The translations under genes and the position numbers were made by a program. From Escherichia coli (GTDB lineage: Bacteria > Pseudomonadota > Gammaproteobacteria > Enterobacterales > Enterobacteriaceae), in assembly GCF_044324785.1 (NCBI RefSeq), contig NZ_CP172127.1: a DNA stretch of 64,000 nucleotides; one strand, written 5' to 3'. The notes below the pieces were generated by a model that saw only the letters and a list, made by a program, of their open reading frames with translations, was not told the origin of the DNA and ran no database searches. Positions 545 through 3,503 of this stretch are shown here, one piece after another; the stretch's first letter is position 1, and every line of letters begins with the position of its first letter.

Positions 545-1165
545 ATGAAAACTACGCATACCGCCCTCCCCTTTGCCGGACATACGCTGCATTTTGTTGA
601 GTTCGATCCGGCGAGTTTTCGCGAGCAGGATTTACTCTGGCTGCCACACTACGCACAACTGCAACACGCTGGACGTAAACGTAAAACAGAGCATTTAGCT
701 GGACGAATCGCTGCTGTTTATGCCTTGCGGGAATATGGCTATAAATATGTGCCCGCTATCGGCGAGCTACGCCAACCTGTGTGGCCTGCGGAGGTATACG
801 GCAGTATTAGCCACTGCGGGACTACGGCATTAGCCGTGGTATCTCGTCAACCGATTGGCATTGATATCGAAGAGATTTTCTCTGTACAAACCGCAAGAGA
901 ATTGACAGACAACATTATTACACCAGCAGAACACGAGCGACTCGCAGAATGCGGTTTAACCTTTTCTCTGGCGCTAACACTGGCATTTTCCGCCAAAGAG
1001 AGCGCATTTAAGGCATCGGAGAGACAAACTGATGCAGGATTTCTGGATTATCAGATAATTAGCTGGAATAAACAGCAGATCATCATTCGACTAGAGGATG
1101 AGCAGTTTGCTGTGCACTGGCAGATAAAAGAAAAAATAGTCATAACGCTGTGCCAACACGATTAA
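545..1165 (+). CDS. entD: Enterobactin synthase phosphopantetheinyl transferase EntD
   Basis: 206-aa ORF immediately downstream of fepA; sequence recognised as EntD (4'-phosphopantetheinyl transferase family). Confidence 0.8.
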   Translation: MKTTHTALPFAGHTLHFVEFDPASFREQDLLWLPHYAQLQHAGRKRKTEHLAGRIAAVYALREYGYKYVPAIGELRQPVWPAEVYGSISHCGTTALAVVSRQPIGIDIEEIFSVQTARELTDNIITPAEHERLAECGLTFSLALTLAFSAKESAFKASERQTDAGFLDYQIISWNKQQIIIRLEDEQFAVHWQIKEKIVITLCQHD

Positions 1166-1286
1166 TTGACGACATCTGGTACGATTCGCCCGCAGCCATC
1201 ACCGACCACGGGCGAAAGTGTAAAGCAGGTGCCTTACCACCCTGACCTGACAACCGGATATGCGGGGATTACTCCCCGCACAACGG

Positions 1287-1439
1287 CTACTTCTTCGGTT
1301 CGTAAGCGAGAACAGCCTTAAACTCAATATTACGTTCCTTCACCGTAAACTCACACAGCGAGTCTCCGACCAGAAGCGTAAATCCCAGTACCGTCAAACA
1401 CAGCACTATGACTGCCACAAGGGCATATTTCGTCAGCAT
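1287..1439 (-). CDS. hokE: Hok-family type I toxin (HokE-like), copy 1, 50 aa
   Basis: C-terminal 50 aa of ORF 1287..1583(-): [50 protein letters not shown]; single TM helix, conserved Hok-family Cys; longer in-frame upstream ORF resembles the overlapping mok arrangement. Confidence 0.75.
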
Positions 1440-1788
1440 GTTTATATTGCCTCCATGCGAAGAAGGGACTACCATCCAAATTGTCTGGTTTGGAGTGGCA
1501 GCCCCAGGGTTGATAGAAATATCTCCTGGGGCTTCATCTTTCCAGACCTCAGAGTAAACCTGAAACCGGAAAGCTTCAGGCACCCGCCGTTATCTTACCC
1601 TTCCTTAGCAAAATATCTGTTTATTTATACAGTGAGTCCTGTTTCGGACTTCTGTCGGCAAAACTCATCATTGCTCTTAAAACGAAATCGCCCGCAGCCA
1701 TTGCTGACCGCGGGCGAAAGTGTAAAACAGGTGCCTTACCACCCTAACCTGACAACCGGATATGCGGGGATTACTCCCCGCACAACGG

Positions 1789-1941
1789 CTACTTCTTCGG
1801 TTCGTAAGCGAGAACAGCCTTAAACTCAATATTACGTTCCTTCACCGTAAACTCACACAGCGAGTCTCCGACCAGAAGCGTAAATCCCAGCACCGTCAAA
1901 CACAGCACTATGACTGCCGCAAGGGCATATTTCGTCAGCAT
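1789..1941 (-). CDS. hokE: Hok-family type I toxin (HokE-like), copy 2, 50 aa (V8A relative to copy 1)
   Basis: C-terminal 50 aa of ORF 1789..1977(-): [50 protein letters not shown]; lies in the second copy of the tandem repeat. Confidence 0.7.
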
Positions 1942-2375
1942 GTTTATATTGCCTCCATGCGAAGAAGGGACTACCATCCAAATTGTTTGGGTTTGGAGTG
2001 GCAGCCCCAGGGTTGATAGAAATATCGTCCTGGGGCTTCATCTTTCCAGACCTCAGAGTAAACCTGAAACCGGAAAGCTTCAGACACCCGCCGTTATCTT
2101 ACCCTTCCTTAGCAAAATAGCTGTTTATTTATACAGTAAGTCCTGTTTCGGACTTCTCAATCCTCATTTGATCAACTGAAGCTGAACCCGTTTTTTTCTG
2201 CATGCCTCAATCGTCAAAATTCTTCGCCACCAGTCCGCACTGCCATAACTTGTCATATTGCAAAATGTAGCCAATTTGCTTCAGTCACCATCACCAAAAA
2301 AAAGAAACATTCCAGAACTTCCGCATCTCGCCCAGTCGCTCCCACTTCTATACTGAATAGAAAACGCCAACATAA

Positions 2376-3503
<1,128 letters not shown>

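Follow-up and report, generated by a model that had tools for sequence, protein, structure and literature searches.

Two tandem, non-identical hokE/sokE units between entD and ybdK in Escherichia coli

Results

Organization of the hokE/sokE locus

The window analyzed here is a stretch of 64,000 nucleotides of Escherichia coli DNA (RefSeq assembly GCF_044324785.1, contig NZ_CP172127.1). The genes around the locus are ordered fepA-entD-hokE-ybdK-ybdJ-ybdF-nfsB, which is the hokE position of E. coli, and the entD–ybdK interval was found to carry two hokE/sokE units in direct tandem, both on the minus strand. As delimited by repeat blocks, alignment and blastn unit mapping, copy 1 on the entD side spans 1186-1653 (468 nt) and copy 2 on the ybdK side spans 1688-2157 (470 nt). 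The repeat search returned three pairs of direct-repeat blocks, 1186-1485/1688-1987 (97%), 1487-1523/1990-2026 (100%) and 1524-1653/2028-2157 (98%); since the start-to-start spacings of these contiguous blocks were 502, 503 and 504 nt, they represent two copies of a single unit, offset by two 1-nt indels. Pairwise and multiple alignment of the copies gave 12 substitutions besides these two indels, that is, 14 differences. Between the units lies a 34-nt spacer (1654-1687, assigned to neither strand), which is outside the repeat and which, on the hok-sense strand, gives a U-rich tail after the terminator hairpin of copy 2. A tandem doubling of the hokE locus had been proposed in the first-pass annotation, with a self-comparison suggested as its check; the repeat search and the alignment both show the two-unit structure. 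Tandem Repeats Finder reported no repeat at the locus, because the repeat period exceeds the 500 nt that this program takes at most. The record closest to the window, E. coli strain N3 (99.9% identity), has the identical two-copy arrangement, and no IS element was found at the window locus. It is very probable that the window holds the chromosomal type I toxin-antitoxin locus hokE/sokE in its common two-copy form.

Hok coding sequences

Each unit contains a complete 50-aa Hok open reading frame on the minus strand, as had been noticed at first reading, and the sole difference between the two products is V8A. The copy-1 coding sequence (1287-1439, minus strand, V8) has the same sequence as the entD-side HokE that RefSeq lists for N3 and other strains (WP_000956465.1), and that of copy 2 (1789-1941, minus strand, A8) is identical to K-12 HokE (WP_000956455.1). 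Position between entD and ybdK, identity of copy 2 with K-12 HokE and the single residue by which copy 1 departs from it identify both as hokE orthologues. Family membership, for which a profile search had been proposed, was confirmed with the copy-1 frame, the one scanned: it matched Pfam HOK_GEF (PF01848) along the whole 42-position model (1-42) with E=2.5e-8. Against NCBIfam, matches were obtained to the HokA and Hok-family models (E=1e-10 to 1e-13), with scores below the curated cut-offs (49 vs 89 bits and 40 vs 73 bits).

The 50-aa frame was kept in all 36 units that were aligned and in 15 further units; within the 36, hok showed 15 synonymous and 10 non-synonymous variants, with a pN/pS of 0.22. 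V8 and A8 were considered as fixed markers of copy 1 and copy 2 and were dropped, since str131 and Z135-1 have the two states the other way round and in PS1Phumofeces1 and M1/5 both copies have the same state. K-12 HokE is reported to be toxic when overexpressed (bioRxiv 10.1101/2025.08.07.668861).

Leader, antisense gene and predicted folding of the hok mRNA

Rfam model RF01794 ("sok", gathering score 59) matched both copies over its full length (1-157) on the hok-sense strand, with 83.7 bits (E=3e-18) for copy 1 and 77.9 bits (E=1e-16) for copy 2. Because these matches are on the hok-sense strand and reach the hok AUG, they mark the hok mRNA leader, which on the minus strand would begin at 1585 in copy 1 and reach the hok start (1431-1585), and would begin at 2089 in copy 2 (1933-2089). 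Three elements lie in the copy-1 leader: the closing sequence at its 5' end (GGGUGCCU), the hairpin targeted by Sok and the Shine-Dalgarno sequence of hok.

The antisense genes were located on the plus strand by alignment to MG1655 sokE (b4835, 60 nt), whose annotation places it opposite hokE, starting 44 nt before the hok AUG. Sok-1 is predicted as a 59-nt RNA at 1483-1541, preceded by a -35 element TTGCCT (1447-1452) and a -10 element TACCAT (1470-1475); Sok-2 is predicted as a 61-nt RNA at 1985-2045, with the -35 and -10 elements at 1949-1954 and 1972-1977. The promoter TTGCCT-17-TACCAT is 100% identical to that of K-12 in both copies. Judged from sequence, both putative sok genes have their own promoter, a terminator hairpin with a U-tail and an overlap with the leader. 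A consensus promoter scan called no sigma-70 site, and the starts of Sok and hok were placed by homology only, from sokE as annotated in MG1655 and from the Rfam model. A weak Rfam match to mir-1990 (E=0.63) fell on the Sok terminator hairpin and was rejected as chance.

Minimum-free-energy folds were computed for the full-length RNAs of copy 1 (400 nt) and copy 2 (402 nt), with folding z-scores of -6.7 and -7.3, respectively. In both, nucleotides 1-8 were predicted to pair with AGGCACCU, just upstream of the terminal hairpin; the 5' closing octamer is GGGUGCCU in copy 1 and GGGUGUCU in copy 2. The modeled closure is of the tac/fbi type, as in the hok mRNA family.

Differences between the two copies

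The mok-like frame differs strongly between the copies. It begins with an AUG at unit position 117 (1537 in copy 1 and 2041 in copy 2), and in copy 2 it runs for 62 codons (1853-2041, minus strand), overlapping hok in the +1 frame and ending inside it. In copy 1, one nucleotide is missing from the loop of the Sok terminator hairpin and another from that of the Sok target hairpin (alignment columns 131 and 167); the mok-like frame is shifted in consequence, comprises only 22 codons plus stop (1469-1537, minus strand) and leaves 30 nt between its end and the hok AUG. An overlapping mok-like frame had been attributed to each copy; this holds for copy 2 and fails for copy 1. Among the units compared, the frame was found with 62 codons (+1 frame), with 83 codons in the hok frame (carriers include K-12, E2348/69 and E. 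albertii) or with 22 or 17 codons, and it is not conserved. As judged from the Rfam alignment and the R1 sequence, the mok-like start is covered by the 3' end of Sok and is not at the position homologous to that of plasmid R1. Since the AUG is off the R1-homologous position and the frame varies among units, mok-dependent coupling may not apply to hokE. Either translation of the mok-like frame matters without its product, or the coupling in hokE works differently.

A GC-rich 3' hairpin in each copy, noted at the outset, was found again at 1186-1215 and 1688-1717 (minus strand). The copy-1 hairpin is a 13-pair structure of terminator type identified by folding, without a U-tract, and has an fbi-like element AAGGCACC at about 1228-1235; the copy-2 hairpin, identified by terminator scan and folding, is followed by TTTCGTTTTA and has the fbi-like AAGGCACC at about 1730-1737. 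A T-run after the hairpin is found in copy 2 only, where the spacer supplies it, and the copy-1 hairpin was not called as a terminator. The predicted antisense RNAs also differ, at nucleotides 3-7 in the 5' recognition end (GUCUGG-UUUGG in Sok-1 vs GUUUGGGUUUGG in Sok-2) and at one loop nucleotide. The pair appears to consist of two related but non-identical modules. A doubled dosage of toxin, and presumably of Sok, had been expected at first reading; given the different Sok 5' alleles and the different translational set-up of copy 1, simple dosage doubling is uncertain.

Putative LexA boxes upstream of both transcripts

A search with the LexA-box pattern CTG-N10-CAG gave two matches against zero expected. 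The predicted boxes lie on the minus strand at 1615-1634 in copy 1 (CACTGTATAAATAAACAGAT) and 2119-2138 in copy 2 (TACTGTATAAATAAACAGCT), each 30-49 nt upstream of the likely mRNA start. hokE has been listed among LexA-box genes (PMC2826370, PMC1891008 and PMC11228462, the last with a heterology index of 4.9). In the RNA-seq data of PMC11228462 (2024), AZT did not induce hokE in K-12 (0.47-fold). Published accounts of SOS induction of hokE disagree, and the K-12 data are mixed.

Comparison with K-12

MG1655 carries a single hokE, and IS186B begins 19 nt after its stop codon; both the single K-12 copy with IS186 and the lack of an IS in the window had been stated at first reading and proved correct. 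The K-12 locus (hokE/sokE, b4415/b4835) resembles the window in its entD–ybdK position, in a Hok identical to that of copy 2, in the identical sok promoter and in the retained LexA box, and over the shared part its unit is 98% identical to the window unit. The K-12 unit, however, is split by IS186B at unit positions 80-91, within the 3' UTR hairpin GGGGAGTAATCCCC and with a target duplication of about 12 bp, so that the closing element and terminator are separated from the gene, whereas both window units are intact and free of IS elements. In K-12 the mok-like AUG opens an 83-codon frame in frame with hok, unlike the 22 and 62 codons of the window copies. IS186 at the K-12 insertion site was also seen in copy 1 of 2017.18.02CC, in copy 2 of CB6886, and in 1008S13 and HE_100-10.

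Distribution and age of the two-copy form

To count double loci, flanked BLAST queries were unsuitable, as the joined pieces of a single-copy genome can cover 98% of such a query; junction and coding-sequence queries were used instead. The junction query was 105 nt across copy 1, spacer and copy 2 and was counted at >=80% coverage, single-copy genomes matching only 41% of it. By this measure the copy 1-spacer-copy 2 junction is present in 2,507 of the 5,426 complete E. coli genomes (46%), and all nine junction-positive records that were inspected had two units, in one case with IS186 splitting copy 2. The hok coding-sequence query matched 7,961 places in 5,374 records, and its matches suggest that some genomes may have 3-4 copies. 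When 40 records were sampled evenly, 17 were colinear with the window over both copies, the RefSeq annotation reading "hokE (x2)". Thus a comparison with K-12 and other strains, suggested at first reading, shows a single copy in K-12 and a two-copy form that is common elsewhere. RefSeq already annotates the two-copy hokE locus, and tandem hok islets have been described in general terms; a literature search returned nothing relevant to hokE duplication or to hokE with IS186.

The double locus was also found in E. whittamii, Escherichia sp. MOD1-EC7003 and the divergent "E. coli" SCPM-O-B-8794, and single units were found in E. albertii and Escherichia sp. E1V33, with one genome examined per species. 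The 34-nt spacer recurs unchanged in O157:H7 FRIK1989, 2011C-3911 and 13E0780 and with four differences in p11A (ST131 type); it is present in MOD1-EC7003, and a 60-nt query of spacer plus flank matched E. whittamii at 96.7%. A spacer this close to invariant among strains points to a single origin of the duplication. Derivation of the spacer from either flank of a single-copy locus was considered, and the one resemblance seen was a weak one to the flank on the ybdK side. Between species, entD has diverged more than the hok units (about 86% vs 96% for E. whittamii).

We then asked how near the window copies are to each other and to those of other strains, using 36 aligned units (28 distinct). 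Copy 1 has six or seven differences from copy 2 of strain 7/2 and from copy 1 of EC7003 and of PS1Phumo, and copy 2 has nine differences from copy 2 of PS1Phumo, compared with the 14 that separate the two window copies. PS1Phumofeces1 has the same allele pair as the window in the same order. As each window copy is nearer to copies in other strains than to its neighbor, the pair consists of old shared alleles and not of a recent copy.

These data bear directly on two other explanations of the pair. An expansion of a single hokE locus into two during assembly is extremely unlikely: nothing in the sequence speaks for it, the copies carry 14 fixed differences, two of them indels, and the same arrangement recurs in N3 and in thousands of complete genomes. 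A recent duplication, or an ongoing homogenizing gene conversion in the source strain, would take the 97% identity of the copies as a sign of youth or of concerted evolution, and in its favor the 14 differences in the window are fewer than the 25-26 of O157 or B1 strains. Alleles also change position between strains, as with the reversed V8/A8 of str131 and Z135-1 and with the "alpha" leader type, which is copy 1 in some strains and copy 2 in others, so that exchange between copies or strains does occur. Nevertheless, the same junction spacer, shared by 46% of the E. coli genomes and by further Escherichia species, the nearer relatives of each window copy elsewhere and the shared allele pair of PS1Phumofeces1 make this reading very improbable for the window. 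The first-pass annotation had taken the near-identity to mean a recent event or ongoing gene conversion; the former is contradicted by the junction frequency, the other Escherichia lineages and the nearer relatives elsewhere, and of the latter only exchange at the population level seems to take place, the window copies not being homogenized. The sequence comparisons make the duplication an ancient one, polymorphic in Escherichia, and neither recent nor specific to this strain.

Variability of the Sok 5' end and its target loop

Nucleotide diversity along the units peaked at unit positions 151-180, where it was 0.18 compared with 0.033 in the coding sequence. The peak is flanked by invariant sequence, with pi = 0 at unit positions 191-230, which hold the sok promoter and the hok Shine-Dalgarno sequence and start. 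Positions 151-180 form the loop and upper stem of a 16-pair leader hairpin and are the exact complement of the first ~20 nt of Sok. Across alleles this target hairpin is 96% paired, with two compensatory changes of A-U to G-C pairs. Two different alleles of the target loop were present in each of the 22 genomes in which both copies could be read, a count that comes from related genomes with about 9-10 independent allele combinations.

Pairing predictions were made for the window alleles. For the first 9 nt of Sok they gave -13.2 to -13.5 kcal/mol with the cognate target and -4.3 and -8.7 kcal/mol in the crossed combinations; for 22-nt duplexes the crossed values were -39 kcal/mol and the cognate values -46 and -49 kcal/mol. 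The diversity pattern fits selection for copy-specific recognition, and it also fits a relaxed constraint on the loop together with an old duplication.

Discussion

The two-copy form that we find in the window is of little consequence by itself, as it occurs in nearly half of the sequenced E. coli and is already annotated. It does make K-12, with one copy broken by IS186, an unusual case and a poor reference for chromosomal hok loci. Studies of hokE in SOS induction, persistence and TadA editing of Tyr46 should allow for two non-identical copies in many natural strains.

By homology with hok/sok of plasmid R1, a working scheme can be proposed for each ~470-nt unit. The unit would comprise a promoter region with a LexA box, a hok mRNA of ~400 nt encoding the 50-aa Hok membrane toxin and a convergent Sok gene of ~60 nt, whose transcript would cover the mok-like start site and the leader target hairpin. 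As in R1, the full-length hok mRNA would be folded shut and untranslated, trimming at the 3' end would let it refold, and Sok would bind the leader and block mok/hok translation. LexA would add SOS control of hok transcription.

Whether both copies work in this manner may be questioned. Copy 1 could be a decaying, non-functional relic beside copy 2 as the only working module, and its 22-codon mok-like frame with a stop 30 nt before the hok AUG, its terminator hairpin without a U-tract and the repeated insertion of IS186 into hokE units would all agree with decay, as would the statement that chromosomal hok loci were inactive for post-segregational killing where tested (bioRxiv 10.1101/2025.08.07.668861, introduction). 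Single-copy strains, however, including the outgroup E. albertii, also have the flank without a U-tract and a non-classical frame (83 codons, in frame), so that these traits of copy 1 are not clearly degenerate, and a ribosome halting 13 nt before the hok Shine-Dalgarno sequence could, we infer, still open that site. Moreover, the Hok frame is intact in every unit examined (pN/pS 0.22), the sok promoter and the hok Shine-Dalgarno sequence and start are invariant (pi = 0), and the copy-1 RNA has as strong a fold as copy 2 (z = -6.7). On balance we think it rather unlikely that copy 1 is a relic.

Another possibility is that diversifying selection on the Sok 5' end and target loop keeps the copies under separate control and limits cross-repression. 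The diversity peak between invariant flanks, the two different target-loop alleles in 22 of 22 two-copy genomes and the weaker predicted pairing of the crossed seeds speak for it. Against it, the 22 genomes are phylogenetically related, which makes their agreement statistically weak, and the region is a hairpin loop within a non-conserved reading frame, where relaxed constraint could explain the diversity. The window Sok RNAs also differ by just one substitution and one indel at the 5' end and one loop nucleotide, and the crossed 22-nt duplexes are still strong. We think such selection rather unlikely, and the fuller proposal, in which it maintains the units as distinct specificity variants with each Sok preferring its own hok mRNA, seems unlikely to us. 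Sibling antisense RNAs discriminate between targets in Sib/Ibs, and those of hokE may do so. Were the proposal true, the two units would act as toxin switches linked to SOS, each tuned on its own and with differing mok arrangements (62, 22 or 83 codons), and not as a redundant duplicate; and if the loop reflects selection for specificity, the locus would lend itself to studying, in a compact natural setting, how an antisense RNA distinguishes its target from a sibling.

Coming back to the two-copy locus as found, it can be placed among known systems. With hok/sok (parB) of plasmid R1 the window units share a Hok/Gef toxin, a leader that fits the Rfam model of the family, a short antisense RNA in convergent orientation, whose terminator hairpin precedes CUUCAUCUUU, and the predicted 5'-3' closure of the mRNA; unlike R1, they are chromosomal, have a LexA box and lack a conserved mok frame. 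In ldr/rdl, ibs/sib, zorO-orzO/zorP-orzP and the hok "islets", as in the window, toxin and antisense RNA are duplicated together in one intergenic region and the copy number varies with the strain (PMC2887945). About the islets it has been reported that 10% of Hok genes lie in groups of 2-6 copies that arise by local duplication (bioRxiv 10.1101/2025.08.07.668861). The window is one instance of this tandem type I toxin-antitoxin pattern and shows no essential difference from it. The SOS-induced type I toxins tisB/istR-1, dinQ/agrB and symE/symR resemble hokE in having a LexA box before the toxin transcript and an antisense RNA with its own promoter (PMC2826370), but they belong to other toxin families and follow another mRNA folding scheme.

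Junctions, insertions and copy number of the hokE units

In strains of the p11A/ST131 type, genes for an SDR oxidoreductase and an ABC transporter were found in place of the flank on the entD side (comparison locus L006, 2456-2521; also L018, L020, L027, L028 and L030), and the breakpoint of this flank coincided exactly with the boundary of the repeat unit (…GGTT|TCGCCCGC). The edge of the unit at the terminator hairpin is thus a recurrent junction, which is joined to the entD flank, to the spacer between the two copies or to the SDR-ABC island. IS186 was inserted in the hok 3′ UTR, within the GGGGAGTAATCCCC hairpin (unit positions 80-91), and the same site was occupied in several arrangements, namely the single unit of K-12, copy 1 (entD side) of 2017.18.02CC and copy 2 (ybdK side) of CB6886 (comparison loci L002, 1073-1163 and 2501-2890; L024, copy 1; L029, copy 2; L007; L022). 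Besides IS186, strain 1008S13 carried IS150 within the hok leader.

In the complete E. coli genome set, matches to the hokE CDS were obtained at up to four places per genome in some genomes. The surplus copies outnumbered the genomes with the copy 1-spacer-copy 2 junction by about 80, and this excess suggests that some genomes carry triplications or dispersed copies of hokE.

Conservation and features of the units

When window positions 545-2157 were compared with E. whittamii (L013) and E. albertii (L010), the hok units were 93-96% identical, versus 84-86% for the adjacent entD gene; the units, though mostly non-coding, thus exceed neighbouring entD in cross-species conservation. E. whittamii has about 860 bp of additional sequence between copy 2 and ybdK. 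Within E. coli, window 1000-2500 showed an identity of only 95-96% to most genomes, and only 3 of 5,420 records, strain N3 included, reached at least 99%; the window would therefore derive either from a lineage that is uncommon or from a recombinant segment.

Each hokE unit contained one LexA (SOS) box on the minus strand, a feature absent from the first-pass annotation; the copy-2 box (2119-2138) matched the TACTG consensus better than the copy-1 box (1615-1634, CACTG...CAGAT). A-to-I editing of hokE mRNA has been reported to yield Cys46 (bioRxiv 10.1101/2025.08.07.668861). The Tyr46 codon (minus strand, 1302-1304 in copy 1 and 1804-1806 in copy 2, within CTTACGAA) retained its TACG context in both copies, and the surrounding stretch (unit positions 351-370) was invariant in all units.

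The Rfam family RF01794 (‘sok antitoxin’) matched the hok-sense strand at window 1431-1585 and 1933-2089, with the match ending at the hok AUG; here RF01794 is a model of the hok leader, not of the antisense RNA's own strand. An 89-aa ‘hypothetical protein’ antisense to hok is called by RefSeq/PGAP in many genomes (e.g., WP_009008364.1 and WP_077557409.1), frequently with a frameshift flag. The corresponding regions (1910-2179 and 1408-1557 on the plus strand of the window; 1909-2170 and 2411-2680 in comparison locus L001) overlap both sok and the hok leader, and the call is probably spurious.
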